The translations under genes and the position numbers were made by a program. This document shows, piece after piece, positions 8,725 through 31,411 of a stretch of DNA of 32,000 nt. The notes beneath the pieces are model-generated. The model did no database searches, had not been told where the DNA came from, and saw only the letters and a list, made by a program, of their open reading frames with translations. The stretch covers positions 4,530,001 to 4,562,000 of the forward strand of contig OZ245049.1 of NCBI GenBank assembly GCA_965224465.1, written 5' to 3'. How positions within the stretch are numbered: the stretch's first letter is position 1; each line of letters begins with the position of its first letter. The stretch is from Flavobacteriaceae bacterium. Lineage in GTDB: Bacteria > Bacteroidota > Bacteroidia > Flavobacteriales > Flavobacteriaceae.

Positions 8725-9849
8725 GCTGAATTCAAGTCACAAACGCAACTTTTAGTTAAATAATAATTGTTCCATTACAAATATAGGGTTTTCGTATTTA
8801 TGTCTCTTCCTAGGTCTGTTATTTAATTTTGTTTCTACCTCTTTGATTCTTTGATCTGTTAGGTTTGTAAAGTCACTTCCTTTGGCAAAATATTGTCTAA
8901 TCAAACCATTTAAATTTTCGTTAGATCCTCTTTCCCAAGAGTGATATGGATGCGCAAAAAAGTAATCAATACATAAATTTTCTGCAACCTGCTCATGGCC
9001 TGCAAATTCTTTTCCATTATCAGCTGTTATAGTATGTAGATAAGGCTTCCAGTCTTCTAATATTTCATTGATAGCTTTGGTGACAACAACTGCTTCTTTA
9101 GAGCTTACTTTTTTCATTTTAAGCATTCCAGAAGCTCTATCATTTACGGTAAGTATGGCTTGATTATGGTTTTTACCTATGATTAAATCGACCTCTAAAT
9201 CTCCAAATCGATTTCTTTGTTCAACAACTTCAGGTCGTTGTTCTATACTAATGCGATTCTTTATAACCCCTCTAGAATCCTTTGATGAGCCACGTTTTCT
9301 ATATCTCCTTCCCTGTCTGCGAAGGTGTGTATGTAAATCACCATCATTCCTCTTGTCTTCCCTAATATGCTGATATATACGCTCAATAGACACCGTTTCT
9401 TTACCTTGTTTTTTTAGGATACCAACTACTTGCTCAGGACTATAATCGTCTCGCAATAACAATTCTATTGCTTGTTGAATATCTTCTGTAAAGCGTTTTC
9501 TTTTAGGCTTTTCTTTATGACGTTTAGCATACTTTTTTTGGGCTAATTCATGCTTGTAAACTCCATTTCTTTTGTCTGAATTACGCTTAATCTCTTTGCT
9601 AATAACAGACTTGTCTTTTCCTATAGCAGCTGCTATCTCAACCTGTTTATAACCTTGTTTTAACATGCAGCAAATTGTGTATCTTTGTGCTTGGGTGATG
9701 TGTTTCATACAACTTCTTTTTTCGAGATTTGAGACCGTAAGATACATATCCATCAAGACAAGAAAGGTAGGTTTTCCTACTTTTCTGTTTTGAAAATATA
9801 ACCATCATAGAATCAAATCGAAAAGTTGCGTTTATTAGTTGAATTTAAG
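8725..9849 (-). mobile_element. IS30-family insertion sequence, copy A (1125 bp)
   Basis: Boundaries defined by comparison with copy B (19634..20758), with about 8 mismatches by eye. Imperfect terminal inverted repeats share the core AATTCAA.T.A.AAACGCAACTTTT. Flanked by a 3-bp direct duplication GTT (8722..8724 and 9850..9852). Confidence 0.9.
8752..9708 (-). CDS. IS30 family transposase
   Basis: N-terminal HTH (MKHITQAQRYTICCMLKQGYKQVEIA) and a DDE region (DLEVDLI...ITADNGKEF...SWERGSNENLNGLIRQY). The track ORF extends to 9756, but the MKHITQAQRY start at 9708 matches typical IS30 N-termini. Confidence 0.9.
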   Translation of the reverse strand: MKHITQAQRYTICCMLKQGYKQVEIAAAIGKDKSVISKEIKRNSDKRNGVYKHELAQKKYAKRHKEKPKRKRFTEDIQQAIELLLRDDYSPEQVVGILKKQGKETVSIERIYQHIREDKRNDGDLHTHLRRQGRRYRKRGSSKDSRGVIKNRISIEQRPEVVEQRNRFGDLEVDLIIGKNHNQAILTVNDRASGMLKMKKVSSKEAVVVTKAINEILEDWKPYLHTITADNGKEFAGHEQVAENLCIDYFFAHPYHSWERGSNENLNGLIRQYFAKGSDFTNLTDQRIKEVETKLNNRPRKRHKYENPIFVMEQLLFN

Positions 9850-13665: not shown

Positions 13666-15432
13666 ATGGCATTACAAAGCATCACTTCTATTTGGATAGG
13701 ATCAACAGAGATATCCTATTTTAAATCATTAGAATTACATCAAAATATAAAAGACCATCACCACCTAAAATTAGTTTGTCGCATGGATGTTTTAGAGGGT
13801 TTTGAAGAAGAACAAGCAAAGAGTAGCAAGGATTTTTTAGGCCAGGTTATCAGCTTAGAAATAAGTCCCTCTATAGGGGTTGAAGGCGCCAAAGAACTCC
13901 TTTTTAAAGGCGTTGTAACGGGCGTGCAAAGCATAAAGGGCTTTGAGGCAGGTGATGGCGATGAAGTGATTATTAGCGCAAAGAGTCCTACTGTTTTAGC
14001 TAGCGATGGCGCACATTTCACTTCGTACAACGATGTTTCTTTGTCTGATATTATATACGATAATTTTCAGCTTTACGACACCTCAAAGCTATCCGTTTTA
14101 ACACGCTTACAAAACGATCCTACCATACATTATTCGGTACAGCACAACGAAAGTTCTTTTGCCTATGCAAGTAGGTTAGCGGCTATGCATGGAGAATGGA
14201 TGTACTACGATGGAATCCAATTGATCTTTGGAAAACCAGATCAAGCAGAAGTTGCATTAACCTACGGATTTGATTTAAAAGAATACGAGTTAAAGCTAGA
14301 GCCACAATCTAGTAATTACACCTATTTTGCAAACGATTATTTAACAGACCAGGTATATGAGCAATCGGCAGCTAATGTAAATACAGGACTGCGAGGATAT
14401 GGCGATTTTGTATCAGGTAAATCCGCACATCTATTCCATAAGGAAACTAAAATTTGGCATAATTTACACAACAGTCCACAAACGCAACAACGCTTAGACA
14501 GGGCTACAGAAATACAAATAAAAGCAATTGCTTTACAACAAGTAATTGTCCGTGTCACAAGCGACAATACAGGGGTAAAACTGGGAGGTATTGTAACGAT
14601 AGAAGGCAATAAATACAGGGTTGTAAAAATTACACATACCAATACAGAAACAGGCGAATACCTCAATAAATTTGAGGCCATTACCACAGATATAAATACA
14701 TATCCGTATACAGATATAAACGCATTTCCAAAAAGTGAAAGTCAAACAGCTGTTGTAAAACACAACGATGATCCCGATGGTTTAGGGCGTGTAAAAGTAC
14801 AGTTTGTTTGGCAAAAAATCACAGGAGAAATAAGTCCATGGATACGAATGGTACAGCCACATGGGGGAGCAGATAAGGGCTTTTATTTTATTCCCGAAAT
14901 AAACGAAGAAGTATTGGTAGGTTTTGAAGGTGGGAATGCAGAGTATCCCTATGTCCTAGGTAGCCTCTACAATGGAAGTCAGGGCGCAGGTGCTTTTCAA
15001 TCAAAAAACAACGATATCAAAGCGATTAAAACCCGTAGCGGACATACTATTGAGTTTAATGATAAAGAGGGTGCAGAAAGCATTACTATAAAAGATAAAA
15101 AGAATAATAGTGTTTTTATTGATACCGCAAATAATAATATAACGATATCGGCAAATGAAACAATGACTTTTAAAGCTAAAAACATTGAGATTAACACTAC
15201 AGAAAATCTAAATATATTTGTAGGAAAGGACAAAAACGAAAGCATTGCAAAAAAACAAACTTTAACAGCAAAAAACAGCACTATCTTAATTGAAGAAAAA
15301 GCAGAAATTCAAGCTAAAGAGTATCTTAAAAATGCGCAAAAAATAACAATAAATAGTACCAAAGAAAACCTAGAACTTTCAAGTGCGAAACAAGTAGTGA
15401 GTAATAGTGCTGAAAAAAATATTTTAAGTTAA
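13666..15432 (+). CDS. vgrG: VgrG / TssI-like spike protein (gp27-gp5 type)
   Basis: 588 aa. gp5 OB-fold signature GRVKVQFVWQ...SPWIRMVQPHGGADKGFYFIPEINEEVLVGFEGGNAEYPYVLGSLYNG, followed by a repetitive beta-helix-like tail (IKAIKTRSGHTIEFNDKEGAESITIKDKKNNSVFID...). Confidence 0.85.
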   Translation: MALQSITSIWIGSTEISYFKSLELHQNIKDHHHLKLVCRMDVLEGFEEEQAKSSKDFLGQVISLEISPSIGVEGAKELLFKGVVTGVQSIKGFEAGDGDEVIISAKSPTVLASDGAHFTSYNDVSLSDIIYDNFQLYDTSKLSVLTRLQNDPTIHYSVQHNESSFAYASRLAAMHGEWMYYDGIQLIFGKPDQAEVALTYGFDLKEYELKLEPQSSNYTYFANDYLTDQVYEQSAANVNTGLRGYGDFVSGKSAHLFHKETKIWHNLHNSPQTQQRLDRATEIQIKAIALQQVIVRVTSDNTGVKLGGIVTIEGNKYRVVKITHTNTETGEYLNKFEAITTDINTYPYTDINAFPKSESQTAVVKHNDDPDGLGRVKVQFVWQKITGEISPWIRMVQPHGGADKGFYFIPEINEEVLVGFEGGNAEYPYVLGSLYNGSQGAGAFQSKNNDIKAIKTRSGHTIEFNDKEGAESITIKDKKNNSVFIDTANNNITISANETMTFKAKNIEINTTENLNIFVGKDKNESIAKKQTLTAKNSTILIEEKAEIQAKEYLKNAQKITINSTKENLELSSAKQVVSNSAEKNILS

Positions 15433-15436
15433 GTGT

Positions 15437-15691
15437 ATGTTTGATTTTATAACAGACACAGAACGTAACGAGAAGGCTTTTAAAAACAATGACCTTAATT
15501 TGGACGGTCGTGACACCTTAAATATTCGCCCCATAATTGGGGTACATACCTATGCGGTCTCTATAAAACATCTGGATGCTGAAACCGAAAAACGACTTGA
15601 CTATACAATAACTGTTGAATTTTTAGAGACCAATGATAAACTAGAATATCTTTTTAGAATTGATAAATCAAATTTTTTTATCAAGACTTGA
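15437..15691 (+). CDS. hypothetical protein (possibly the 5' half of a frameshifted gene)
   Basis: 84-aa ORF starting 5 nt after vgrG. It ends just after a T7 run (15674..15680). Confidence 0.4.
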   Translation: MFDFITDTERNEKAFKNNDLNLDGRDTLNIRPIIGVHTYAVSIKHLDAETEKRLDYTITVEFLETNDKLEYLFRIDKSNFFIKT

Positions 15692-15932: not shown

Positions 15933-16095
15933 CAGCACCTAAACGTAATGCAGGTTTGGTGCTTACAATAAAGTTCAGTACATCTAACGAATACCGCTAA
16001 CACGAAGTCTCACCGAAGGCAAATCTTTTGATTTGGTTTTAAGAGAATAAAGAAAAAACAAAATAAAAAGCTTTGGCTAATTGCAATATTGAAAG

Positions 16096-16147
16096 TCCGT
16101 ACTTTCTAATCCGTACTGCGCTTAGCCAAACGTTCTAAGCAATTAGA
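16096..16147 (+). promoter_or_regulatory. conserved 52-nt upstream element, copy 1 (function unknown)
   Basis: tccgtactttctaatccgtactgcgcttagccaaacgttctaagcaattaga. Contains the direct repeat TCCGTACT-N6-TCCGTACT and the palindrome GCTTAG-N9-CTAAGC. Lies 23 nt upstream of ATG 16171. Similar copy at 18668..18719. Confidence 0.4.
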
Positions 16148-16216
16148 CCACTAAACTTAAAAAAATAAAAATGATATCAAAATTAATAGCTACGGTAGGC
16201 GACACACACTTGTCCA

Positions 16217-16999
16217 ATGATAACAGCTACAAAACCTCATACTGGAGGAACAATTATTTCAGGCTCTCAAAGTGTTTTTATTAACAATAAACCCGTAGCA
16301 CGTATGGGGGATAAATGTATTTGTACTGGATGTGGGATGATTACAATAATTGTACAAGGAGATGCTAATGTATTAGTAGATGGAGTACCTATTGCTTATA
16401 TGGGATGTATGACTTCGCACGGAGGAGTAATCACATCTGGACAAGTCAATGCTTTGATTGCAGGAAACAAACCTCCAAATATTGTAACTATGCCATTAGA
16501 GGATATTCCTTTTCCAAATATTTATTTAATCGATAAAATATTCTCTTCAAAACAGATTAAAGTATCTAAATCTAACATTGAAAAAATTAAAGAACAAGCT
16601 TATAGTGATGATGAAAACATATCAATTACAAGTACAGTTGCAATTGAACAATTTGTTGAATTTTGTAAAGAAACAGAAACAGAGGATTTTATAAATCAAT
16701 GTAAAGAAGCTTACGGAAATAAAATTTTAAAAAAAACGTTTAAAATTTTGCAAGAGAAAGCCAAAAACAATGAAATTCAACAACCAAAAATAAAAACAAC
16801 AAAAGGATATGTACCTAAAGATGTTAATTATAATTTTAAAGAAGGGGCTCATATCATAGAAGTGACCGAAAGAATTATAAAAGCGTCTAAAAAAAGTGAA
16901 ACAGAACACGATAGGTTAATGCTTAATTTAGGAAATGCTTTTCACGATTATATAAAAAGTATCATTGATAATGAATGTAAACCAATTGTAAATTCTTAA
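16217..16999 (+). CDS. PAAR domain-containing protein with ~170-aa unrecognised C-terminal extension (N-terminus apparently frameshifted, see findings)
   Basis: PHTGGTIISGSQSVFINNKPVARMGDKCIC...VDGVPIAYMGCMTSHGG matches PAAR repeats. The expected first motif (MISKLIATVGDTH) lies in another frame, starting at 16171. Confidence 0.8.
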   Translation: MITATKPHTGGTIISGSQSVFINNKPVARMGDKCICTGCGMITIIVQGDANVLVDGVPIAYMGCMTSHGGVITSGQVNALIAGNKPPNIVTMPLEDIPFPNIYLIDKIFSSKQIKVSKSNIEKIKEQAYSDDENISITSTVAIEQFVEFCKETETEDFINQCKEAYGNKILKKTFKILQEKAKNNEIQQPKIKTTKGYVPKDVNYNFKEGAHIIEVTERIIKASKKSETEHDRLMLNLGNAFHDYIKSIIDNECKPIVNS

Positions 17000-17001
17000 A
17001 A

Positions 17002-17901
17002 ATGAAAAAAAAATTAGTAGACTTATTTCTCAAAAAATCTGAAATGACTGCCACAGCCAATATAAATGGAGAAACACACGAATTATCTATGATTATCGGA
17101 GGGAGTGAATTAAAAGAATTAGAAAAACCATATAAAGAGCATCAATATTTCTATTATTGTTACGTAACAGATGAATTTGTGAATGGAAAAAAATATGCTC
17201 TTACTGTTGTTGCAAGGATGGATTTAAAACGGTATTATGGAATACCTGAACCAATTAAAAATGAAATTATCTACAGGCACGTAGACATTACACATATAGC
17301 ATTAGATGGTAACGGAACTCCTATTACAGGATGGCATCATCGAAGAGAAATTGATGAAATAAGAAAAGAAGGAGATGGAGGAATTTGGGATAGTATATTA
17401 AATACTAGTAAATATTTTGAACATAAAACAAAAAGTGATAAAACGTACAGGGTTAAAGAACAGAATATTAATGATGTTTTAAATAAACAAATTTTAGTTT
17501 GTCAATCTAACGTAAATATTAAACTTGAAAAAAATTTTATAAAATACTTAAATGAAATAGGCAATTTTACAAGAGAGAACGATACTACCTTTCCTTACGC
17601 TGTAATTAGTGATGAGATGGCTGACTTCGACAACATCAGAACAGCAATCGGTGCAGTTTCAATGTTTGTGCCAGTTGGTAGAGCTTATAAATTATCTCAA
17701 GAAATTGTTTCATATTTAATGGACATAATAGGTTCTTCAAGTTTGGCACTACCAGCTTCGAAATTTTATGATTTGCGTGGTCCTATAAAATTATCAAAAG
17801 TTACAAGAGATGTTTACGAAAGTTTTATCGGTCAGAATAGTAAACATTATTATGAAAAAAAACAAACAAATCAAAATGATGAAATTATTATATTTTATTA
17901 G
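17002..17901 (+). CDS. hypothetical protein (no signal peptide), tightly coupled to the PAAR gene
   Basis: 299-aa ORF starting 2 nt after the PAAR gene stop. No recognisable motifs. Confidence 0.6.
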   Translation: MKKKLVDLFLKKSEMTATANINGETHELSMIIGGSELKELEKPYKEHQYFYYCYVTDEFVNGKKYALTVVARMDLKRYYGIPEPIKNEIIYRHVDITHIALDGNGTPITGWHHRREIDEIRKEGDGGIWDSILNTSKYFEHKTKSDKTYRVKEQNINDVLNKQILVCQSNVNIKLEKNFIKYLNEIGNFTRENDTTFPYAVISDEMADFDNIRTAIGAVSMFVPVGRAYKLSQEIVSYLMDIIGSSSLALPASKFYDLRGPIKLSKVTRDVYESFIGQNSKHYYEKKQTNQNDEIIIFY

Positions 17902-18508
17902 TAAATTATTTTTATTATTTACATTTATTACTTCTTGTACGAGCAATAAAGAAGTTCCTTTTTTAATAACTTCAGATTTTTTATCAAACTTTGATTCGAT
18001 AAAAAAACAAGCTCCATATAAAGTTACAAACTTAGCTAATTGTGATGTAGGGTATTCTAATTTACCTATGGAAATTCATACTAAAAGAAATAGTAAAAAA
18101 ATACATAAAGCTTGGGATGAAATAGTTAACCTGTATAAATCAGAATCTAATTTCTATATAGATACAATAAATATAGAAATTAGAGTTAAAAGAAAATTGA
18201 CTAAATGGCTTTTTGAAAATGACAAAAGATTAGAAAAGCAAATAACAGTTGATGATTTTAAAAACTTGTTAATCAAAGATGGCGTAAAACCAAACGATTT
18301 CGACATTAAACAAGAAAGGGAAATCGAATATGATGGTGGATTTAAAAATAAAATATTAGAGCTATGGTATAAAGGGACAGTGAATAATATTAGAATTGGT
18401 CGTAAAGGAGATATCCATATAAATACTTACTTAGAATCTCAAATACCATACTGGGAAACACAAGGATATCAGTTTTCAACACCCTCGCCTGAAACGAGTG
18501 GAAAATAG
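17852..18508 (+). CDS. hypothetical lipoprotein
   Basis: Track ORF begins at 17810. The internal start MKKNKQIKMMKLLYFISKLFLLFTFITSCTSNK gives a charged n-region, a hydrophobic core and the lipobox ITSC. Overlaps the previous gene by 50 nt. Confidence 0.6.
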   Translation: MKKNKQIKMMKLLYFISKLFLLFTFITSCTSNKEVPFLITSDFLSNFDSIKKQAPYKVTNLANCDVGYSNLPMEIHTKRNSKKIHKAWDEIVNLYKSESNFYIDTINIEIRVKRKLTKWLFENDKRLEKQITVDDFKNLLIKDGVKPNDFDIKQEREIEYDGGFKNKILELWYKGTVNNIRIGRKGDIHINTYLESQIPYWETQGYQFSTPSPETSGK

Positions 18509-18667
18509 GTTTAAAAATAAAAATTAAAGCCACCTAAAATAACTGCTTAGAATAATAAGTGTATTATACTACCGGCAACGCTATTAATAACCAATCCATC
18601 AATAGTATATTCATACCCTACTAAATAACCACCTATAGAAACATCACCATCTACAGAATTAGAAGCA

Positions 18668-18719
18668 TCCGTACTTTCTAATCCATACTTCGCTTAGCCA
18701 AACGTTATAGCCGATTAGA
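18668..18719 (+). promoter_or_regulatory. conserved 52-nt upstream element, copy 2
   Basis: tccgtactttctaatccatacttcgcttagccaaacgttatagccgattaga, with about 7 mismatches to copy 1. Followed 4 nt later by ATG 18724, a 35-codon ORF in a different frame from the 18815 ORF. Confidence 0.4.
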
Positions 18720-18814
18720 AAAAATGGAATACAAAGGAAAAATTGCTGAAGAGTTTGTAAATGAATTAACATATAATTTATTTTTAAAGTTTTGGCGCTA
18801 CCCTGGTCAGAAAT

Positions 18815-19633
18815 ATGAAAACGTCAGCTAATCGACTTTTTGGGTATATAGCTAGGTTCCAAATAAAAACAACTTTATACGCCAATAAAGATTCTTTTAC
18901 AGGTAAAGAAGTGGACTATGTAAGAGAAGGATTAATTATTAATGATAAAGAAAATCGTAATAGCAATAATTTTACAAACAAATTTAAAAGCGTTGCTCCT
19001 AACGGAGAGGTAATTGGAGTCACTTATACAAGCGAAGATGAAATGATTAGCAATAGTGGTTACGGGAGACATGTACAATATGGTATAGATAACGCTCGTA
19101 AATACACCAAAACTGCTTTAAAAGAGATATACGATACAAAAAATAATGGTTTTGTCCTGGAAGGGCAGCAAGTATCTTTTCAGGTAAAAGATGATACGAT
19201 GGATGTGATATTAGAGAAATACGAAGCGGGAAAAAATAATATGTTGGCTGTTGTAGGTGATGTAGAATACAGCTCAAAAGAAACAGGATCTTGTAAATTC
19301 TCTAAATTACAAATAGAACATAAAAGTAGAAAGAAACCATTTGTACTTTTTGACGAAGAGAAGACGACTCAAAAACCAATAGACCATACCAATTTAGCCT
19401 TTTCCATTATAGCAGCAACAAAGAAAGAAACGATTAAGATTACAGCCATTGGCTTAGCCATACAAAACTATCAAGATAAAGGAGAACGAAAACCAAAATG
19501 TTATGGTATTACCACCGCAAAAAAGATAAAAGAAGGCATTCTGACGGATAAAAAAATAAAACATAAAAGACAATTAGATTTTAAGCACAACTCCATTAAA
19601 GATGTGTTTCCTATGGAAGACGCTTATATATTA
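18815..19633 (+). pseudogene. 5' part (273 codons) of a ~751-aa candidate secreted effector gene interrupted by IS30 copy B
   Basis: The ORF reads into the IS at 19634, so the last 12 codons of the track ORF (AEFKSQTQLLVK) are IS-derived. The true start may be further upstream (18724) with a frameshift. Confidence 0.75.
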
Positions 19634-20758
19634 GCTGAATTCAAGTCACAAACGCAACTTTTAGTTAAATAATAATTGTTCCATTACAAATATAGGGTTT
19701 TCGTATTTATGTCTCTTCCTAGGTCTGTTATTTAATTTTGTTTCTACCTCTTTGATTCTTTGATCTGTTAGGTTTGTAAAGTCACTTCCTTTGGCAAAAT
19801 ATTGTCTAATCAAACCATTTAAATTTTCGTTAGATCCTCTTTCCCAAGAGTGATATGGATGCGCAAAAAAGTAATCAATACATAAATTTTCTGCAACCTG
19901 CTCATGGCCTGCAAATTCTTTTCCATTATCAGCTGTTATAGTATGTAGATAAGGCTTCCAGTCTTCTAATATTTCATTGATAGCTTTAGTGACAACAACT
20001 GCTTCTTTAGAGCTTACTTTTTTCATTTTAAGCATTCCAGAAGCTCTATCGTTTACGGTAAGTATGGCTTGATTATGGTTTTTACCTATGATTAAATCGA
20101 CCTCTAAATCTCCAAATCGATTTCTTTGTTCAACAACTTCAGGGCGTTGTTCTATACTAATACGATTCTTTATAACCCCTCTAGAATCCTTTGATGAGCC
20201 ACGTTTTCTATATCTCCTTCCCTGTCTGCGAAGGTGTGTATGTAAATCACCATCATTCCTCTTGTCTTCCCTAATATGCTGATATATACGCTCAATAGAC
20301 ACCGTTTCTTTACCTTGTTTTTTTAGGACACCAACTACTTGCTCAGGACTATAATCGTCTCGCAATAACAACTCTATTGCTTGTTGAATATCTTCTGTAA
20401 AGCGTTTTCTTTTAGGCTTTTCTTTATGACGTTTAGCATACTTTTTTTGGGCTAATTCATGCTTGTAAACTCCATTTCTTTTGTCTGAATTACGCTTAAT
20501 CTCTTTGCTAATAACAGACTTGTCTTTTCCTATAGCAGCTGCTATCTCAACCTGTTTATAACCTTGTTTTAACATGCAACAAATTGTGTATCTTTGCGCT
20601 TGGGTGATGTGTTTCATACAACTTCTTTTTTCGAGATTTGAGACCGTAAGATACATATCCATCAAGACAAGAAAGGTAGGTTTTCCTACTTTTCTGTTTT
20701 GAAAATATAACCATCATAGAATCAAATCGAAAAGTTGCGTTTATTAGTTGAATTTAAG
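19634..20758 (-). mobile_element. IS30-family insertion sequence, copy B (1125 bp)
   Basis: About 99% identical to copy A, same orientation. Flanked by a 3-bp direct duplication TTA (19631..19633 and 20759..20761). Confidence 0.9.
19661..20617 (-). CDS. IS30 family transposase
   Basis: Differs from the copy A protein by one residue (VGILKK versus VGVLKK). Start chosen as for copy A. Confidence 0.9.
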   Translation of the reverse strand: MKHITQAQRYTICCMLKQGYKQVEIAAAIGKDKSVISKEIKRNSDKRNGVYKHELAQKKYAKRHKEKPKRKRFTEDIQQAIELLLRDDYSPEQVVGVLKKQGKETVSIERIYQHIREDKRNDGDLHTHLRRQGRRYRKRGSSKDSRGVIKNRISIEQRPEVVEQRNRFGDLEVDLIIGKNHNQAILTVNDRASGMLKMKKVSSKEAVVVTKAINEILEDWKPYLHTITADNGKEFAGHEQVAENLCIDYFFAHPYHSWERGSNENLNGLIRQYFAKGSDFTNLTDQRIKEVETKLNNRPRKRHKYENPIFVMEQLLFN

Positions 20759-22198
20759 TTATACCCAGATGCTATAAGTAATGTATCTACTGCTATTGTA
20801 GAGACAGACGGTACAGGTACAATTAATATAGAAGAACAAAACCTCGAATACACCTATCTCAAAAATGGTATAGAACTAAAGGTTGGGTATTTTTACAATA
20901 AGACTTTTGATACTTCTGTAGAAAAAATAATTGGACTAAAAATAGGAGAATGGACGAATGATTTTATTGATAAAGCTTGGATTTTAAGATACTTTTTACT
21001 CAGAGATAATCAAGCACAAACCTATTTTATCCCTGTTGGAACTTGTAGGTACCCGAATCAAACCGTTGTCATAAAAATATATCCAGACATAAATTGGTCT
21101 ATTTCATTTTCTTTTGGGAAGGTAGATCCAAAACATAAAGAAGATTGGCAAAGTGGCTTGTCCGAAAAAAAAGCAGCACTAATAAATAAGTATAAAGAAG
21201 AAATATCCGAAACAAAAGCAGCACTAATAAATAAGTGTAAAGAAGTAATTTTTAGAAGTAAACAGCTCTCCGTAGAAGAAAAGAAAAAAAAAGAAGTATT
21301 AAAAAAAATCAACTTCTCACTTGGTATAGCCGCTGCTTATGGTACAAATAAAATTAATTTAACACCTGATTTAGGTAAAAAAATACATGACCTAATATAT
21401 GAGTTTGCCAAAGCCAAAAACTTAATTGATTCTATAAGTGGAAATTCTGTTAGTAAAGAAAAACAAAATTCATTATACAAAAATCGGATAAAAAATCTTG
21501 GTGGAAAATGGATGAAAAAACTAGACAAACTACCTGTTACCATAACAGTGTATCAACCCAGTTTTTCAGCTGGTTTTGCATGGGGTAGGAAAACATTGGA
21601 ATCACAAACAAATTGCAATGCTCCTATAACATATGATGTGTTTTTAAAAGCAGATCCTTTATTTAAAATGGAAGGAAGCCTAGATTTAATTACCTGTGCT
21701 ACTTTTATGCCTGTTATTGGACAGGTAATAAAAGTAGTTGATATTGTATTAAATGTTGCTGGAATAGAGCCTGTATTGAAGCTTACTGCCATGGGGGAAA
21801 TTAAATTATCACTAATAGGTACAATAAAAGTTGACGGCGACACCAATGAGAAAAAACTAGAAACTAAAATGAGTGCAGGACTCAAAATGACTATAGAAGC
21901 AAGTATTACTATAGGAGATGGACTGGTAGGATTTATGTTTGCTGGTGGTGATATTATTGGCACTGTGACAAAGAAGACCTATACCGCCTATGCGGAAACA
22001 GGATTTGAATTAAACCTATCCACTGGCGTTACGGCTCATAAAGGCCCCTATGTAGGAGTGAAACTAGAATTCCTAGGTCTTATTGCTGCAGGGAAATTAG
22101 AAACAAAAATAGATAAATTTGGAGGGACTTCCGAAGAACTATTTAAGTATACTATTATAGAGAAAACTACTTTTATAGACAAAACTTTTTACTTTTAA
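20759..22198 (+). pseudogene. 3' part (about 478 codons) of the IS30-interrupted candidate effector gene
   Basis: Removing the IS and one TTA copy joins ...MEDAYIL to YPDAISNV... in frame. The first 8 codons of the track ORF (MRLLVEFK) are IS-derived. The C-terminal ~220 aa are rich in Gly, Ala, Ile and Thr (GDGLVGFMFAGGDIIG, LGLIAAG). Confidence 0.75.
21161..21250 (+). repeat. 2 x 45-bp in-frame tandem repeat inside the effector gene
   Basis: tccgaaaaaaaagcagcactaataaataagtataaagaagaaata followed by tccgaaacaaaagcagcactaataaataagtgtaaagaagtaatt (SEKKAALINKYKEEI / SETKAALINKCKEVI). Confidence 0.85.
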
Positions 22199-22202
22199 AA
22201 TT

Positions 22203-23144
<942 letters not shown>

Positions 23145-23155
23145 TAAAAGAAAGT

Positions 23156-24058
23156 ATGAATAGAATTTTATTGATTTCGTGGGGCTGTATTTTTTTCTGT
23201 TGTTCAGTGTATGGACAACAGAAAAAAAACATGAACACCCAAACCAGCCAACAGAACAATTACCCGTATAAAAACGACAGCCGACCTGGTTATTATTTAC
23301 AAATAAATAATCAGAATTGTTATTACGAACTGGATATAAATGGCTTAAGCAGTACAGAGTATTATGGTGAATATCCTGCTTATTCAACAAGAATACCTCT
23401 AAATCTTCAAATATTAAAAAGTGGAACACAAAGTCTTTCCTTAAAAATAGTTCCTTATAAAGGTGATACCCTGTCTCCAAAAGCCAACCTGCAAATGCGT
23501 TTGATAAAATATGCAGACATGACAGATTTAGAAAACGAATATGGAGGAAGTACCGTATTGTGGAACTGGGAAATGCCAGATATTGAGAACCAAAAACTAC
23601 CCTTATTTGTTTATGATACTGTATTTAAAGCGGAGGTGCCCTATTCAATTAATACACTTGACACCAAGGCAGTTGATTTATCTAAAATAGACAAAGACAT
23701 ACTGCTAGAGAAAGTACTTACAGAATTTACTAGGATTAGAGCATCTGTTATTAATAAAACACAAGACAAAGAAGCTTTATGTAAATTGGTAAATCGTGGA
23801 ATTATACAATTATACAAAGGAGAAAAACTTAAAGACGAGGTGGTTGATGATATGATAAATCTTGGAGATGGAAAAGAACCACAAGCCTTAGAGAATTTTG
23901 AAATGTGCATGTATTATCACAATAGAACTGTAACTCTGGTTAGAAAAGTTAATAAAGGAGCTGTTATCTGGTTTGAGAATCCAGAAACGGGAGGGACATC
24001 CTGGCAGCCTGTTTATATATACATAGATAAGGTTACTGGGAAATGGGTGCGATGGTAA
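23156..24058 (+). CDS. family-A lipoprotein or secreted paralogue A2
   Basis: Start placed at MNRILLISWGCIFFCCSVYGQQKK. The MGAMVIKES extension in the track is the 3' end of A1 read in another frame. Only 2 Gln at the tract position. Confidence 0.75.
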   Translation: MNRILLISWGCIFFCCSVYGQQKKNMNTQTSQQNNYPYKNDSRPGYYLQINNQNCYYELDINGLSSTEYYGEYPAYSTRIPLNLQILKSGTQSLSLKIVPYKGDTLSPKANLQMRLIKYADMTDLENEYGGSTVLWNWEMPDIENQKLPLFVYDTVFKAEVPYSINTLDTKAVDLSKIDKDILLEKVLTEFTRIRASVINKTQDKEALCKLVNRGIIQLYKGEKLKDEVVDDMINLGDGKEPQALENFEMCMYYHNRTVTLVRKVNKGAVIWFENPETGGTSWQPVYIYIDKVTGKWVRW

Positions 24059-24069
24059 TAAAAGAAAGT

Positions 24070-24972
24070 ATGAATAGAATTTTATTGATTTCGTGGGGCT
24101 GTATTTTTTTCTGTTGTTCAGTGTATGGACAACAGAAAAAAAACATGAACACCCAAACCAGCCAACAGAACAATTACCCGTATAAAAACGACAGCCGACC
24201 TGGTTATTATTTACAAATAAATAATCAGAATTGTTATTACGAACTGAGAATTAATGATTTTAATGGAGGTAATTATTTTGGTATGTACCCATCATATTCA
24301 GTACGGATCCCTTTAAATTTACGAATATTAAAAAGTGGAAAACAAAGTCTTTCTTTAAAAATAGTTCCTTATAAAGGTGATACCCTGTCTCCCAAAGCCA
24401 ACCTACAAATGCGTTTGATAAAATATGCAGACATGACAGATTTAGAAAACGAATATGGAGGAAGTACTGTATTGTGGAGCTGGGAAATGCCAGATATTGA
24501 GAATCAAAAATTACCCTTATTTGTTTATGATACTGTATTTAATGCAGAAGTGCCCTATACACTTGATAGACTTGACACCAAGGCAGTTGATTTATCTAAA
24601 ATAGACAAAGACATACTGCTAGAGAAAGTACTTACAGAATTTACTAGGATAAGAGCATCTATTATTAATAAAACACAAGACAAAGAAGCTTTATGTGATT
24701 TTATAGATTGTGCACTTATACAATTATACAAAGGAGAAAAACTTAAAGACGAGGTGATTGATGGTATGATAAATCTTGGAGATGGAAAAGAACCACAACC
24801 CTTAGAGAATTTTGAAATGCGCATGTATTATCACAATAGAATTGTAACTCTGGTTAGGAAAGTTAATAAAAGGTCTGCTATCTGGTTTGAGAATCCAGAA
24901 ACAGGAGGGACATCCTGGCAGCCTGTTAATCTATACATAGATAAGGTTACTGGGAAATGGGTGCGATGGTAA
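24070..24972 (+). CDS. family-A paralogue A3
   Basis: Same architecture as A2. Carries the alternative variable patch ELRINDFNGGNYFGMYPSYSVR. Confidence 0.75.
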   Translation: MNRILLISWGCIFFCCSVYGQQKKNMNTQTSQQNNYPYKNDSRPGYYLQINNQNCYYELRINDFNGGNYFGMYPSYSVRIPLNLRILKSGKQSLSLKIVPYKGDTLSPKANLQMRLIKYADMTDLENEYGGSTVLWSWEMPDIENQKLPLFVYDTVFNAEVPYTLDRLDTKAVDLSKIDKDILLEKVLTEFTRIRASIINKTQDKEALCDFIDCALIQLYKGEKLKDEVIDGMINLGDGKEPQPLENFEMRMYYHNRIVTLVRKVNKRSAIWFENPETGGTSWQPVNLYIDKVTGKWVRW

Positions 24973-25186
24973 TAAAAAAAGTTAAAATTTGATTACCCAC
25001 GGTATTTTACATAGAGTCTGATTTTTCGACGGATTTTTATTTTTCAGGAGTCACCATTTTTGTTAAATTTCAAGGAGGGAGAAAAAAAGAGGGTAAAGCA
25101 GACTCTACTTTTCACATAATCGACGATTTAAGCACTTCTTTTGATATTTTAAAAAAGAAAGGAGAATTCAAATAAAATAATAAAAA

Positions 25187-26008
25187 ATGAAATCACAAAA
25201 ACACCTTATACTAAGCATTGCAATGCTAGTACTTGTTAATTGTAAAGGACAAGAAAGTAAAAAAACAAACGATCATAAAAAATACGCAATGAATATACCA
25301 AAAAAACAATATTTCCTGAACTATGAGCTATTTATGTCTTATGAATTATATATAAATGATGTAAAATTAACCAATAATTTTCAATCGGGACCAGTATCTG
25401 GTATGGAGTATTTGAATGATTACATTCTGAATTCGGGAAAACAAACAATAACATTAATTGACCGTGATTTAGAACCTGATTCTAATATGCCAAATGATAT
25501 ATTTAAAAAAATAAGTTTAGCAATTTATAGTGCAGATGAAAATGATGAAAACACAAAGTTGGAAAAGAAGTTTGATTTCCCTGATATACCAACTCCAAGA
25601 CCATATTATTATAAAAACACATGGGAGTTTGATGCTGAAGTTCCTTACACCGTAGACGGATGGAAAGATGGGCAAGATTTATCAAAAATAGATCAAAAAG
25701 AGTTGAAGAAAATGGTGGTAGCGAAATTTCAACACTTAAGAACAATTTTAAATCAAGGAAAAGTAGATCAATTTATGGAAGAAAACGCCAAAGGATATAA
25801 GGAATTTGTTATTACCAACTATTATCAAAAAAAATGGCATGAATTTGACGAAAACATTAGAGAAACTATAGGTAATCAAAAGGGAATTATGCTTCCTTTA
25901 GAGCATTATAAAATGAAAATAGTTGCAAATGGTCAATTGGTAACCTTAGAAAGAATTAACCTCCCTTATAAAGGACAAAGTGCATTGTTAGCAATCAATG
26001 AAAAATAA
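25187..26008 (+). CDS. family-B lipoprotein B1 (distant paralogue of family A)
   Basis: 273 aa, lipobox LVNCKG. Shares architecture with family A (YELYINDVKL... / ...SGKQTITL / FDAEVPYTVDGW..DLSKIDQKEL). Ends at a TAA that is followed by 33 more in-frame codons. Confidence 0.7.
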   Translation: MKSQKHLILSIAMLVLVNCKGQESKKTNDHKKYAMNIPKKQYFLNYELFMSYELYINDVKLTNNFQSGPVSGMEYLNDYILNSGKQTITLIDRDLEPDSNMPNDIFKKISLAIYSADENDENTKLEKKFDFPDIPTPRPYYYKNTWEFDAEVPYTVDGWKDGQDLSKIDQKELKKMVVAKFQHLRTILNQGKVDQFMEENAKGYKEFVITNYYQKKWHEFDENIRETIGNQKGIMLPLEHYKMKIVANGQLVTLERINLPYKGQSALLAINEK

Positions 26009-26141: not shown

Positions 26142-26311
26142 ATGATAAAAAGGCTGCTATCTGGTTTAAGAATTCAAAAACGAGAGGAACATCCTGGCAG
26201 CCTGTTTATACCAAATACATTTCCAAGAGACGGTTTAGAAATGGAATTATTTTTTATATCGGTCATTTTGGATTGTAATTGGTATCATATATACATAGAT
26301 AAGGTTAAAGG
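26142..26311 (+). pseudogene. remnant of a family-A gene 3' end, frameshifted and carrying a MITE insertion
   Basis: aaaaggctgctatctggtttaagaattcaaaaacgagaggaacatcctggcagcctgtttata ... tatatacatagataaggtta aligns to the conserved A-gene tail (NKRAAIWFENPETGGTSWQPVYIYIDKV). Confidence 0.65.
26211..26286 (+). mobile_element. 76-bp MITE-like element, copy 3, inserted in the A-gene remnant
   Basis: Intact paralogues read cctgtttatatatacatag. Here 76 bp are inserted and ATA (or TA) is duplicated at the junctions. Near-identical to 1408..1483. Confidence 0.65.
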
Positions 26312-27242
26312 GCAAAGTGGCTTGTCCGAAAAAAAAGAAGTATTAAAAAAAATCAACTTCTCACTTGGTATAGCCGCTGCTTATGGTACAAATAAAATTA
26401 ATTTAACACCTGATTTAGGTAAAAAAATACATGACCTAATATATGAGTTTGCCAAAGCCAAAAACTTAATTGATTCTATAAGTGGAAATTCTGTTAGTAA
26501 AGAAAAACAAAATTCATTATACAAAAATCGGATAAAAAATCTTGGTGGAAAATGGATGAAAAAACTAGACAAACTACCTGTTACCATAACAGTGTATCAA
26601 CCCAGTTTTTCAGCTGGTTTTGCATGGGGTAGGAAAACATTGGAATCACAAACAAATTGCAATGCTCCTATAACATATGATGTGTTTTTAAAAGCAGATC
26701 CTTTATTTAAAATGGAAGGAAGCCTAGATTTAATTACCTGTGCTACTTTTATGCCTGTTATTGGACAGGTAATAAAAGTAGTTGATATTGTATTAAATGT
26801 TGCTGGAATAGAGCCTGTATTGAAGCTTACTGCCATGGGGGAAATTAAATTATCACTAATAGGTACAATAAAAGTTGACGGCGACACCAATGAGAAAAAA
26901 CTAGAAACTAAAATGAGTGCAGGACTCAAAATGACTATAGAAGCAAGTATTACTATAGGAGATGGACTGGTAGGATTTATGTTTGCCGGTGGTGATATTA
27001 TTGGTGCTGTGACAAAAAACACCTATACCGCCTATGCGGAAACAGGATTTGAATTAAACCTATCCACTGGCGTTACGGCTCATAAAGGCCCCTATGTAGG
27101 AGTGAAACTAGAATTCCTAGGTCTTATTGCTGCAGGGAAATTAGAAACAAAAATGGATGAATATGGAGGGACTTCCGAAGAAACTTTTAAGTATATTATT
27201 ATAGATAAAACTACTTTTATAGATAAAACTTTTTACTTTTAA
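26312..27242 (+). pseudogene. orphan copy of the effector C-terminal module (duplicate of about 21147..22198, lacking a 120-bp repeat segment)
   Basis: Near-identical to the 3' third of the effector gene from WQSGLSEKK onward, diverging only in about the last 35 codons. It has no N-terminal region of its own. The track ORF 26142..27242 is a chimera reading through the A remnant and the MITE. Confidence 0.7.
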
Positions 27243-27246
27243 AATT

Positions 27247-28179
<933 letters not shown>

Positions 28180-28190
28180 TAAAAGAAAGT

Positions 28191-29094
28191 ATGAATAGAA
28201 TTTTATTGATTTCGTGGGGCTGTATTTTTTTCTGTTGTTCAGTGTATGGACAACAGAAAAAAAACATGAACACCCAAACCAGCCAACAGAACAATTACCC
28301 GTATAAAAACGACAGCCGACCTGGTTATTATTTACAAATAAATAATCAGAATTGTTATTACGAACTGAGAATTAATGATTTTAATGGGGGTAAATATTTT
28401 GATATGTACCCATCATATTCAGTACGAATCCCCTTAAATTTACGAATATTAAAAAGTGGAACACAAAGTCTTTCTTTAAAAATAGTTCCTTATAAAGGTG
28501 ACACCCTGTCTCCAAAAGCCAACCTACAAATGCGTTTGATAAAATATGCAGACATGACAGATTTAGAAAACGAATATGGAGGAAGTACCGTATTGTGGAA
28601 CTGGGAAATGCCAGATATTGAGAATCAAAAACTACCCTTATTTGTTTATGATACTGTATTTAATGCAGAGGTGCCCTATACAATTAATACACTTGACACC
28701 AAGGCAGTTGATTTATCTAAAATAGACAAAGACATACTGCTAGAGAGAGTACTTACAGAATTTACTAGGATAAGAGCATCTATTATTAATAAATCACAAG
28801 ATAAAAAAGATTTAATAAGGGGGATAAGACGTCCGCTTATTCAGTTATATAAGGGAGAAAAACTTAAAGACGAGGTGATTGATGGTATGATAAATCTTGG
28901 AGACGGAAAAGAACCGCAACCCTTAGAAAATTTTGAAATGCACTTGTATTATCACAATAGAATTGTAACTCTGGTTAGAAAAGTTAATAAAAGGGCTGCT
29001 ATCTGGTTTTGAGAATCCAGAAACGGGAGGGACATCCTGGCAGCCTGTTTATATATACATAGATAAGGTTACTGGGAAATGGGTGCGATGGTAA
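28191..29094 (+). pseudogene. family-A paralogue A5, frameshifted near the 3' end
   Basis: T4 at 29007..29010 where all other paralogues have T3 (ctggtttgagaatcc). This creates TGA at 29010..29012. The remaining 27 codons of the conserved tail continue in the +1 frame to the stop at 29092..29094. Confidence 0.7.
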
Positions 29095-29308
29095 TAAAAA
29101 AAGTTAAAATTTGATTACCCACGGTATTTTACATAGAGTCTGATTTTTCGACGGATTTTTATTTTTCAGGAGTCACCATTTTTGTTAAATTTCAAGGAGG
29201 GAGAAAAAAAGAGGGTAAAGCAGACTCTACTTTTCACATAATCGACGATTTAAGCACTTCTTTTGATATTTTAAAAAAGAAAGGAGAATTCAAATAAAAT
29301 AATAAAAA

Positions 29309-29404
29309 ATGAAATCACAAAAACACCTCATACTAAGCATTGCAATGCTAGTACTTGTTAATTGTAAAGGACAAGAAAGTAAAAAAACAAACGATCATAA
29401 AAAA
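29309..29404 (+). pseudogene. family-B lipoprotein gene B2, 5' part (32 codons), interrupted by IS66-family element
   Basis: MKSQKHLILSIAMLVLVNCKGQESKKTNDHKK is identical to the B1 N-terminus. The upstream 215-bp intergenic region matches the one before B1. Confidence 0.75.
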
Positions 29405-29483
29405 GTAAGCGTACGGAGAACTACATCTTGTAAGAAGTTAAAAATAATCTAATTTTTGCATCTAAACAAAAACGAAAATATAA

Positions 29484-29837
29484 ATGTTAGGATTAGGTAC
29501 AGAACACACGTATTATTATCACTTATCTGCAGTTGATATGCGAAAAGGATTTAATGGATTAAGTGGATTAGTTAGTGAGCACATGGAACAAGAGCGAGAT
29601 AGAAATAGTGTTTATGCATTTATCAATAAGCAAAAAAATAAACTAAAACTTCTTCATTGGCGACCTGGAGGATTTGTACTGTATTATAAACGATTGGAAC
29701 GAGGTATTTTTGAGCTTCCAAAATACGACATTGAAGATGGATTAGTAGTTTTGAGTTATACCCAAATGGTTATGGTTTTAGACGGAATTAGTATTATAAA
29801 TACTCAGAAAAACGAACGTTATTTAGAGGCTAAATAA
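29484..29837 (+). CDS. tnpB: IS66 family accessory protein TnpB
   Basis: 117 aa. DMRKGFNGLSGLV and LKLLHWRPGGFVLYYKRLERG motifs are typical of IS66 Orf2. Confidence 0.85.
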   Translation: MLGLGTEHTYYYHLSAVDMRKGFNGLSGLVSEHMEQERDRNSVYAFINKQKNKLKLLHWRPGGFVLYYKRLERGIFELPKYDIEDGLVVLSYTQMVMVLDGISIINTQKNERYLEAK

Positions 29838-29880
29838 TTCAATAAAACTGTAGGTTTTACCTGCTATTTAGTCTTGTTTT

Positions 29881-31383
29881 TTGTATATTTATAGTGTGGA
29901 AAACAATACAATAGACATACAAAAAGAGCTGGTAATTTTAAAGATTGAACTTGAAAAAACAGCTCAAGAACTAGCTGAAATTAAGCAGCAATACGAGCAG
30001 CTTAAAAGAATGGTTTTCGGGTCTAAAAGCGAACGTTTTATCCCTGTTGACACAAATCAATTGTCGCTTTTCGGAAAAATAATAGCTGAGAAAGAAGAGG
30101 CATACAAAAAACATATTGTAATCTACGAAAGAAAACAAAAGAAGAAAGGAGAGAAAAAACCTGTTCGCTCTTCTATACCTGCGCATTTTCCGCGAGTAGA
30201 AGAGATTATAGAGCCTAAGCACATAGAAGAAGGAGCTGTAAAAATAGGAGAAGAAGTTACAGAACTTTTAGAAATAACGCCTCTTTCCGTTTTTGTAAGA
30301 CGAATTGTAAGACCTAAATATGCACTTCCGGAAGAAAAAGGCGTTGTTATAGCAGAATTACCAAGCTTACCGATACCTAAAGGAAATGCATCAGCAAGTT
30401 TATTGGCCTTTATACTTATTTCAAAATTTGTAGACCATTTACCACTTTACAGATTAATTCAAATTTTTAAACGACAAGATTTAAAAGTAAGTAAATCAAC
30501 AATTGGAGGATGGGTATCTAAAAGTTCGGAGCTTATCGCTCCTTTATACGATACATTTAAGGCTCAGTTTTTAGAAAATGCCAATTATATTCAAGCAGAC
30601 GAATCTCCTATAAAGGTTTTAGATAAAGACAAGAAAAAATCAACACACAGAGGGTATATGTGGGTGTATCGAAATCCTGTTAAAAATTTAGTTCTTTTTG
30701 AATACAATAAAGGGAGAGGAAAAGTTGTTCCAGAAGAGTTTTTTAAAGATTTCAATGGGACACTACAGTCCGATGGGTATGCTGCATACCAAAACTTAAC
30801 AACAAAAGGAGAAATTACTCTTTTAGGTTGCATGGCTCATGCTAGGCGGTATTTTGAGAAGGCGCTGGATAATGATCCTAAAAGAGCGGATGTTGTTTTG
30901 TTGGAAATTCAAAAGCTATACAAGATAGAACGTAAAATAAAAGAACAAGAATTAACTATTGAGCAAACTAAAGCATATAGAGAAAAACATGCATCACCTG
31001 TTTTAGACGGAATAGAAATTTATCTTACAAAAGAGCGAAAAAACGTACTGCCTAAAAGTGCCATAGGAAAAGCAATTGCTTATACTCTTAAAATATGGCA
31101 AAACCTAAAACTATACATCGATGATGGCAGGTTTGAAATAGACAACAATAATATAGAAAATGCCATAAGACCTTTAGCTATTGGCAGAAAAAATTATCTC
31201 TTTGCTGGCAGTCATGAGTCCGCACAAAACATAGCTCTATTTTATAGCTTTTTTGCTACTTGCAAAAAGAATAACGTAAACCCACATACGTGGCTATGTG
31301 ATGTCCTTAATAGATTACCAGAACATAAGGCTAATAAACTTTCGGAGTTACTGCCTCAAAATTGGAAGCCTGTTGATAAATAA
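29881..31383 (+). CDS. IS66 family transposase (TnpC)
   Basis: About 500 aa. N-terminal coiled coil and KRMVFGSKSERF, DHLPLYRL, ADESPIKVL...GYMWVY, and CMAHARRYF motifs. The start codon is uncertain (TTG 29881 or GTG 29895). Confidence 0.9.
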   Translation: MYIYSVENNTIDIQKELVILKIELEKTAQELAEIKQQYEQLKRMVFGSKSERFIPVDTNQLSLFGKIIAEKEEAYKKHIVIYERKQKKKGEKKPVRSSIPAHFPRVEEIIEPKHIEEGAVKIGEEVTELLEITPLSVFVRRIVRPKYALPEEKGVVIAELPSLPIPKGNASASLLAFILISKFVDHLPLYRLIQIFKRQDLKVSKSTIGGWVSKSSELIAPLYDTFKAQFLENANYIQADESPIKVLDKDKKKSTHRGYMWVYRNPVKNLVLFEYNKGRGKVVPEEFFKDFNGTLQSDGYAAYQNLTTKGEITLLGCMAHARRYFEKALDNDPKRADVVLLEIQKLYKIERKIKEQELTIEQTKAYREKHASPVLDGIEIYLTKERKNVLPKSAIGKAIAYTLKIWQNLKLYIDDGRFEIDNNNIENAIRPLAIGRKNYLFAGSHESAQNIALFYSFFATCKKNNVNPHTWLCDVLNRLPEHKANKLSELLPQNWKPVDK

Positions 31384-31411
31384 TCAAGGGTGTACTTTAC
31401 CGTACGCTTAC

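Follow-up and report, generated by a model that had tools for sequence, protein, structure and literature searches.

The window analysed here, a 32,000-nucleotide stretch of contig OZ245049.1 from a Flavobacteriaceae bacterium (assembly GCA_965224465.1), carries a candidate effector gene (positions 18815 to 22198) that is interrupted by an insertion sequence (IS) of the IS30 family. We conclude that this gene is very probably a degraded spare copy, whether a pseudogene or an orphan cassette, of a type VI secretion system (T6SS) effector resembling Bte3 of Bacteroides fragilis, and that the copy is truncated at its 5' end as well as split by the IS. The family was described in 2026, and the window holds a further, degraded member of it: a remnant of a Bte3-like effector, not a working one. 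Because it is without the N-terminal beta-sandwich region, the adaptor and the PAAR-like partner, the remnant cannot yield a deliverable toxin. Taken by itself, the split gene would be a pseudogene of an ordinary kind, in a T6SS auxiliary island that is decaying; its wider interest is that a large unannotated Bacteroidota family is now tied to the Bte3/Bti3/Ate3/Pte3 system.

The split gene and the uninterrupted protein P0024

The listing of open reading frames (ORFs) places three ORFs across the locus, of 285 aa (18815..19672, + strand), 334 aa (19661..20665, - strand) and 487 aa (20735..22198, + strand). Deletion of the IS together with one TTA triplet joins 18815..19633 to 20762..22198 into a sequence of 2256 nt that has 751 codons and zero internal stops, the junction reading ...MEDAYIL-YPDAISN.... 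This reproduces the in-frame 751-aa join, with the same junction, described in the original prediction, which had also proposed looking for an uninterrupted allele in related strains. Such a sequence is provided by P0024, a 985-aa protein found in the same 90%-identity cluster as the window's 285-aa and 366-aa ORFs and apparently derived from the same genome. P0024 is uninterrupted across the junction (...MEDAYILYPDAISN... / ...KDVFPMEDAYILYPDAISNVSTAIVETDG...), and its residues 251-985 align with reconstruction residues 17-751 with 729 identities in 735 positions; the six mismatches are all confined to residues 958-971. Since P0024 reads straight through the reconstructed join, the junction is, as judged from the sequences, real and not a chance in-frame join, and the refuting condition named in the original prediction, a junction never seen uninterrupted, was decided in favour of the reconstruction. 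When P0024 was used as the sole query in a contig search, no locus was returned.

The reconstruction is not a complete gene. Homology to P0024 opens only at codon 17 (nt 18863), and upstream of the ATG at 18815 the frame is closed by stops. Homologues of the effector are mostly 970-1023 aa long (range 639-1023), and when four of them served as tblastn queries, no part of the window matched their first ~250 residues. The window copy does not have the full N-terminal beta-sandwich region, residues 1-250 of the intact protein being absent, and this missing part carries residues conserved in at least 90% of 57 relatives (W48, G110, P122, F143, Y164, H175, N221 and W234). In the AlphaFold2 (AF2) model of P0024 the truncation breakpoint falls inside a strand modelled at 244-258, not at a domain edge. 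Two points of the original prediction have to be revised. Position 18815, from which the 751-aa join was read, is not the true start of the gene, since its initial 16 codons have no relation to the family and homologues extend ~250 aa further; and the IS was taken as its only obvious lesion, which is contradicted by the loss of the first 250 codons and of the partner genes in the island.

What remains of the effector is distributed over two fragments. Fragment 1 holds the end of the N-terminal beta-sandwich and a conserved Cys/His middle domain (C394, E415, D424, C463 and H492 in P0024 numbering), and fragment 2 holds the TCRYPNQ motif, a helical region and a beta module of long strands. Across the 57 relatives, C394, E415, D424, C463, H492, C602-R603 and W619 are invariant; the corresponding stretch of P0024 (394-619) is present in the window as part of 18863-19633 and 20762-21100. 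This invariant Cys/His/Glu/Asp set, for which no fold match gave an explanation, may form a metal, disulfide or catalytic site.

The boundaries of the IS (copy B, 19634 and 20758) were fixed by comparison with a second IS30 copy (A) at 8725..9849, which is 99.3% identical (8 substitutions) and is bracketed by its own 3-bp duplication, GTT. The comparison bore out the IS30 copy proposed originally, with a TTA on both flanks. The copy B transposase matches the NCBIfam equivalog model transpos_IS30 (E=1.2e-86; 290.7 bits, cutoff 80) and, in Pfam, HTH_38 together with a weak rve match; at the DNA level, weak matches to annotated IS30 transposases were obtained. A separate repeat search showed that the terminal inverted repeats are imperfect and about 25-34 nt long. 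Copy B has what characterises the IS30 family, namely a DDE transposase, terminal inverted repeats and a target-site duplication of 2-3 bp, and like other members it combines a single DDE transposase bearing an N-terminal helix-turn-helix with a length of ~1.1 kb, imperfect inverted repeats and a 3-bp duplication. The element itself is in no way unusual; what distinguishes this case is that the insertion sits in a predicted linker, so that the split would coincide with a domain boundary. In the AF2 model, the insertion site after P0024 residue 507 is in coil, within a predicted linker spanning 506-526 in which the predicted local distance difference test score (pLDDT) is low at 513-515. The Bacteroidetes-type promoter pattern (TTTG-N17-23-TANNTTTG) occurs at 6 sites against 3.2 expected; neither the end of the IS nor the sequence upstream of 18815 contains one.

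Relation to the Bte3 system and predicted structure

Bte3 is an effector of the B. fragilis GA3 T6SS (T6SSiii) that is toxic in Escherichia coli only if sent to the periplasm (Valguarnera et al., Nat Commun 2026, PMC13402684). Its secretion needs the adaptor Ate3 (Orf2) and the DUF4280 PAAR-like protein Pte3 (Orf3), and it is neutralised by the lipoprotein Bti3 (PMC13402684). The same authors left the toxic mechanism undefined, described the C-terminal module as an 'open beta-barrel' and reported structural orthologues in free-living Bacteroidota, including Flavobacterium columnare (PMC13402684).

Profile A6, representing the ~770-aa branch of the family, retrieved a 768-aa cluster (P0224/P0249) with 268 members, one of which is named B. 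fragilis. The B. fragilis locus L070 contains genes for ClpV, TssD proteins, TssE, a 605-aa protein and VgrG, followed by the 768-aa gene and by genes of 325 aa, 466 aa, 312 aa and 231 aa (DUF4280), an order that agrees with the published bte3-bti3-orf1-orf2-orf3(DUF4280) (PMC13402684). On the basis of the species name, the exact length and this gene order, we infer that the 768-aa cluster is Bte3. P0024 matches the B. fragilis 768-aa protein in BLASTP at E=3e-17, and hhalign of the family profile A5 with the profile of the 768-aa cluster (A7) gave 100% probability (E=2.8e-51) over 541 columns, corresponding to P0024 residues 308-985 and including the C-terminal module. The columns of C394, E415, D424, C463, H492 and C602-R603 are invariant in the 768-aa cluster as well. 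The profile of the immunity-type genes of the window matches the 325-aa gene of L070 (hhalign, 98.4% probability, E=5e-15), and a full-length ~330-aa gene (g330) of the related locus L001 matches the 312-aa gene at the Orf2/Ate3 position (E=1e-11). By these comparisons of sequence, all four components are homologous to those of the B. fragilis system.

The window gene and its relatives therefore share with the Bte3 system an effector whose homology runs from the middle domain as far as the C-terminus, a homologous lipoprotein gene, which in the window lies directly downstream, and a VgrG/T6SS context. The Ate3-like adaptor gene and the DUF4280 PAAR-like gene are found in the operon in relatives and, apart from a stub of the adaptor gene, not in the window. 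The predicted N-terminal beta-sandwiches and long C-terminal strands are also consistent with the published 'open beta-barrel'. Differences are found in length (985 aa versus 768 aa), in the first ~300 residues, which are not alignable, and in gene order, since in relatives the adaptor and PAAR-like genes stand upstream of the effector and not downstream of the immunity gene. Further differences are an extra 382-aa gene, tandem immunity genes and the state of the window copy, which is 5'-truncated, IS-split and without its partners.

The gene order in relatives was examined in 66 Bacteroidota loci obtained by a degenerate-pattern scan, with one genome per species. They include Aquimarina, Cellulophaga, Tamlana, Spongiivirga, Algibacter, Tenacibaculum, many Chryseobacterium, Pedobacter, Niabella and Empedobacter, as well as Flavobacterium columnare and covae. 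The closest relatives, as read in a Logan contig (L001) and in Aquimarina latercula (L002), have two TssD genes followed by VgrG (590-602 aa), g330, a DUF4280 gene, a 382-aa gene (g382), a ~1000-aa effector and a ~300-aa gene. The trio of g330, DUF4280 gene and effector is present in nearly all 66 loci, and a homologue of the ~300-aa gene usually comes next (tblastn with the L001 neighbours). The closest homologues belong to Aquimarina, with 62% identity in A. longa and 59% in sp. RZ0, and in A. longa the effector is followed by three tandem copies of the ~300-aa gene and a divergent one, resembling the window. The candidate effector status proposed originally is thus backed by the VgrG island, the T6SS synteny in the 66 loci, the homology to the inferred Bte3 and the Bti3-like downstream gene. 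Homologues in at least 13 genera are single ORFs through the junction.

Clustered at 50% identity, the family comprises 334 representatives in an exhaustive profile search. Its widespread part is the C-terminal half (profile positions ~540-990), and some proteins share only the N-terminal half. Searches of Pfam and NCBIfam with the reconstruction, P0024 and nine relatives found no family, the sole hit being LysM on one relative; profiles A1 and A5 likewise had no meaningful match among PDB sequences, those to eL29 being Lys-rich noise. In other genomes, 3' fragments of the effector lie downstream of a full-length gene (L004 9452-10399, L008 13659-14546, L012 15011-16552 and L045 13862-15052), and in L045 an immunity homologue comes next. 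Orphan 3' fragments are therefore recurrent in the Bte3-like effector family.

Extrapolating from the experiments on Bte3, the intact 985-aa protein would be a cargo effector mounted on VgrG through an Ate3-like adaptor and a DUF4280 tip protein. Its toxicity would be exerted in the periplasm of the neighbouring cell into which it is fired, its long-stranded amphipathic C-terminal beta module damaging the envelope of the neighbour, and a periplasm-facing lipoprotein would protect the producer.

The scores of the AF2 models were as follows: pLDDT 75.0 and a predicted template modelling score (pTM) of 0.63 for P0024, and pLDDT 78.6 and pTM 0.66 for fragment 2 (478 aa, 62-sequence alignment). P0024 is modelled as mostly beta up to residue ~260, mixed up to ~625 and helical at 642-752; residues 796-984 form seven to eight strands of 20-23 residues, and hydrophobic helices lie at 816-839 and 895-901. 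Amphipathicity is strong in the long strands, with mean Kyte-Doolittle values of +2.0 to +2.7 on one face and -0.9 to -2.2 on the other. Invariant polar residues are scarce in this long-hairpin module, D815 being the only one.

The original prediction had described the C-terminal region as rich in Gly, Ala, Ile and Thr and had speculated on a membrane-inserting or pore-forming module. The composition was confirmed (G 9.8%, A 7.1%, I 9.3% and T 10.7% in the last ~225 aa). The GxxxG-like motifs do not appear to build glycine-zipper helices, since AF2 puts them mainly in strands or in a low-confidence loop: GIAAAYG (695) and LGLIAAG (945) in strands, and GFMFAGGDIIG (897) in a short helix plus a low-confidence loop. 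The sole near-transmembrane hydrophobic segment (residues 819-837; mean hydropathy over 19 residues, 1.77) is modelled as a helix at 824-839 beside beta hairpins. An alpha-helical transmembrane or glycine-zipper reading finds no support in hydropathy or in the AF2 secondary structure. Foldseek returned no match at E<1e-3 for the C-terminal model in PDB and BFVD, and for the full model in PDB only generic Ig-like, arrestin and alpha2-macroglobulin hits with a template modelling score of about 0.1 on the query. Neither the recognisable fold nor the transmembrane or glycine-zipper helices of a pore-forming toxin were found, with no match in Pfam, NCBIfam or PDB sequences and no specific fold from Foldseek. 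A pore-forming or membrane role is plausible from the model: the amphipathic module, the few invariant polar residues and the location of the immunity protein are compatible with envelope damage by a new fold. The invariant Cys/Cys/His/Cys and Glu/Asp set and the short variable patch near the C-terminus, which changes in concert with patches of the immunity genes, could guide work on the mechanism of Bte3.

The VgrG island, the probable replacement module and the immunity array

The remnant lies in an island headed by a VgrG gene (Table 1), whose product shares 56% identity with the VgrG that lies upstream of the L001 effector. Five bases past VgrG begins an 84-codon ORF that matches only residues 1-81 of the ~330-aa g330 in eight related loci (tblastn), and tblastn detected no homologue of DUF4280 or g382 in the window. 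Where the rest of the adaptor gene, the DUF4280 and 382-aa genes and the first 250 effector codons would be expected, there is a segment with a PAAR gene, an ORF of 299 codons (orf299) and a lipoprotein gene (orf232). The PAAR gene appears frameshifted: MISKLIATVGDTH, read from the ATG at 16171, carries on as THTCPMITATKPHTGG in the +1 frame, and the ORF from 16217 is without the first PAAR strand. The orf299/lipoprotein pair (17002-18508) has no Pfam or NCBIfam family match. In a Cellulophaga T6SS island (L018, 8542-9545) a homologue of the C-terminal half of orf299 (48% identity) adjoins a homologue of the lipoprotein (31%), and the two are probably another uncharacterised effector-immunity pair.

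The PAAR/orf299/lipoprotein module is bracketed by the two copies of a 52-nt direct repeat, whose 39-nt core has two occurrences against 0 expected. This repeat may mark a joint of recombination, or else be a promoter or leader present twice; it was unmatched in the related loci fetched, as were the junction sequences 15692-16216 and 18509-18862.

The simplest reading of this arrangement is effector displacement by an incoming PAAR/effector/immunity module. Recombination would have swapped the segment from about codon 82 of the adaptor gene through codon 250 of the effector for the PAAR/orf299/lipoprotein module, sparing the 3' 2.2 kb of the effector and the immunity array. The IS30 element would have inserted after codon 507, in the predicted linker, with duplication of TTA, before or after the replacement. 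The immunity array is probably what selection maintains at the island. Effector displacement that leaves orphan immunity arrays has been proposed for the T6SS clusters of Vibrio cholerae (Kirchberger et al. 2017, PMC5361080), and here too a new module stands upstream, destruction has hit the 5' side of the old effector and the immunity genes are kept in a downstream array. The window differs in phylum and effector family, in the survival of a long 3' remnant of the effector, in the further IS hits in the island and in the origin of part of the array by segmental duplication. On this reading, the window would be a natural example of effector displacement in Flavobacteriaceae.

The effector fragments are followed by five ~310-aa immunity paralogues and two divergent ones. 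The three tandem immunity-type genes share 69% identity with the gene found downstream of the L001 effector. The divergent B-type gene (25187..26008) is 26% identical to the immunity gene imm301 of L001, and the remainder of its 3' end is still detectable. Self-comparison of the window revealed that 21285..25282 recurs at 26329..29404 with 94% identity, so that the last ~914 nt of the effector are present twice. The second copy forms part of a chimeric 366-aa ORF, whose first 62 codons are built of the 3' end of an immunity gene and a repeat of ~80 bp. The contig of the window has four such 366-aa ORFs, which have their chimeric head in common, as well as two 228-aa fragments. As the four 366-aa copies share a single chimeric junction, the unit would therefore have been amplified and not repeatedly captured.

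The ~80-bp repeat, which looks like a repetitive extragenic palindromic (REP) element or a miniature inverted-repeat transposable element (MITE), also flanks the yaaA gene (1408-1486 and, inverted, 2635-2683); its third copy (26205-26288) lies inside the 366-aa ORF, where it interrupts the immunity-gene 3' end.

In the fifth immunity paralogue (28191-29012), a 1-nt insertion (TGGTTTTGAG versus TGGTTTGAG; region 28975-29030) truncates the gene. An IS66-family element interrupts the second B-type immunity-like lipoprotein gene (29309..29404, resuming at 31412). It is flanked by an 8-bp duplication, CATAAAAA, at 29397-29404 and 31412-31419, and encodes TnpB (29484-29837) and TnpC (29881-31383), a tnpA-like first ORF not being evident in the element. 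Together, the PAAR frameshift, the frameshifted or truncated immunity copies, IS30 and IS66 point to widespread damage and decay of the island. Scanning the window against Rfam and for tRNAs gave no hit.

Table 1. Coordinates of the effector remnant and of the surrounding island in the window, with the basis of each assignment.
Feature	Position	Strand	Basis or remark
VgrG spike gene, 588 aa, heads the island	13666..15432	+	Pfam Phage_base_V 1.2e-23, Phage_GPD 8.3e-12; NCBIfam VgrG models
Stub (~81 codons) of Ate3-like adaptor gene	15437..15691	+	tblastn to g330 in related loci
Replacement segment	15692..18862	+	where adaptor 3' part, DUF4280, 382-aa gene and effector codons 1-250 would be
52-nt direct repeat, left copy	16096..16147	+	repeat search, 88% identity
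PAAR gene	16171/16217..16999	+	Pfam PAAR_motif 8.5e-21; apparently frameshifted near 16205
orf299	17002..17901	+	homologue in Cellulophaga locus L018
Lipoprotein gene (orf232)	about 17852..18508	+	homologue in L018
52-nt direct repeat, right copy	18668..18719	+	144 nt upstream of truncation point
Fortuitous ATG and 16 codons (MKTSANRLFGYIARFQ)	18815..18862	+	outside the effector family; P0024 alignment starts at codon 17
Effector fragment 1	18863..19633	+	P0024 residues 251-507; protein 100% identical over the span
Target-site duplication TTA, left copy	19631..19633	.	sequence reading
IS30-family insertion sequence, copy B	19634..20758	-	1125 bp; transposase ORF 19661..20665
Target-site duplication TTA, right copy	20759..20761	.	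sequence reading
Effector fragment 2	20762..22198	+	P0024 residues 508-985; identity to P0024; BLASTP match to the B. fragilis 768-aa protein
Variable patch near C-terminus	22112..22153	+	P0024 residues 958-971; holds all 6 differences
Three tandem Bti3-like lipoprotein (immunity-type) genes	22203..23144, 23156..24058, 24070..24972	+	alignment A3, hhalign, lipobox signal peptides
Divergent B-type immunity-type lipoprotein gene	25187..26008	+	truncated, 273 aa versus 307-aa paralogues
Chimeric 366-aa ORF	26142..27242	+	immunity-gene 3' end, ~80-bp repeat and second effector 3' end from 26329 (= 21285 onward)
Two more Bti3-like genes	27247..28179, 28191..29012	+	second frameshifted
IS66-family element	29405..31411	+	Pfam TnpB_IS66 4.3e-29, DDE_Tnp_IS66 1.1e-93; terminal GTAAGCGTACGG

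The variable tip and alternative readings

The six differences between P0024 and the reconstruction fall in a patch of ~14 residues (KLETK..GG.SEE.FKY.II), and it is mostly in this same patch that the 366-aa and 228-aa fragments differ from each other. The two cassettes of the window show 0 differences over 600 nt and then differ in clusters, located at the tip of the effector and in patches of the first immunity gene, with 28 differences counted in 100 nt (22385-22484). This pattern is compatible with co-varying specificity determinants and a reservoir of orphan cassettes, which we regard as a minority possibility.

The patch was also considered as the target of a diversity-generating retroelement, and this was rejected: the substitutions are A/G, A/T, C/T and multi-base, not adenine-specific. 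No reverse transcriptase domain was found among 20 window ORFs scanned against Pfam.

Other explanations of the split gene were weighed against a degraded spare copy. That its two halves are independent genes that only seem to join is scarcely credible: the source annotation does call separate 285-aa and 487-aa ORFs, but the end of the former and the start of the latter are IS-derived, and the junction is spanned as one ORF by P0024 and the homologues in at least 13 genera. It is very unlikely, too, that the 751-aa reconstruction represents a complete and recently functional effector, with IS30 as its sole lesion, from which precise excision would restore a toxin. Such a reading would account for the clean in-frame join, the perfect target-site duplication and the lack of stops, and E. 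coli Bte3 orthologues with only one beta-sandwich at the N-terminus indicate that shorter forms exist (PMC13402684). However, 17 of 17 sequence homologues, and P0024 with them, reach ~250 aa further N-terminally through residues at least 90% conserved. Moreover, the first 16 codons are foreign to the family, the cut lies within a modelled beta strand, and in the island the adaptor and DUF4280 genes are a stub or missing.

An active role for the remnant has more in its favour and is still unlikely in our judgement: the truncated copy and the 3' fragments would be silent cassettes that recombine into the intact locus and exchange the tip and its matching immunity gene at once, an idea put forward for the orphan modules of Rhs and CdiA. 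The contig carries at least seven 3' fragments (one of 751 aa, four of 366 aa and two of 228 aa) with long identical stretches, differing almost only in the patch, and their identical 5' homology extends from hundreds of bp to 2.2 kb. The patchy distribution of differences between the window cassettes and the orphan 3' fragments downstream of full-length genes in L004, L008, L012 and L045 would also fit. Yet no recombination event was seen, the single chimeric junction of the 366-aa units argues for amplification, IS30, IS66, the frameshifts and the truncations point to decay, and the variable patch is only about 14 residues long. The junction common to the amplified units and the decay seen across the island are why the cassette reading was rated as the minority one. 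The likeness to the orphan cassettes of Rhs and CdiA lies in 5'-truncated toxin fragments, each followed by an immunity gene, with long homology to the full-length gene and C-terminal differences. Conversely, Rhs/YD or CdiA features are not found in the window gene (none in Pfam), the variable part is ~14 residues and not a whole domain, and the large remnant lies at another VgrG island than the intact gene. A more general form of the idea is that Bte3-like effectors of marine Flavobacteriaceae diversify through cassettes, truncated 3' ends with differing ~14-residue tips and immunity paralogues with matching variable patches serving as a recombination reservoir that switches toxin-immunity specificity. 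We consider this rather unlikely; if true, the tip would mark the immunity-binding surface of Bte3-like toxins.

Some points weigh against our preferred reading, that of a degraded spare copy of a Bte3-like effector. The placement of P0024 in the same genome rests on the source record of the cluster table and not on its locus, and the identification of P0224/P0249 with Bte3 was made from species name, exact length (768 aa) and gene order. The near-identity of the remnant to P0024 and its lack of stops indicate that it was very recently inactivated or has been homogenised by gene conversion, and it may have a residual role. Finally, the annotated 487-aa ORF, which starts with a TTG at 20735 inside the IS end, could in principle be expressed.

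A minor observation concerns two of the immunity-type genes, in which a CAA tract, (CAA)16 at 22257-22304 and (CAA)13 at 27301-27339, encodes a poly-Gln linker just past the lipobox Cys. The length of the tract varies between the two window cassettes, and the other immunity paralogues are without it.

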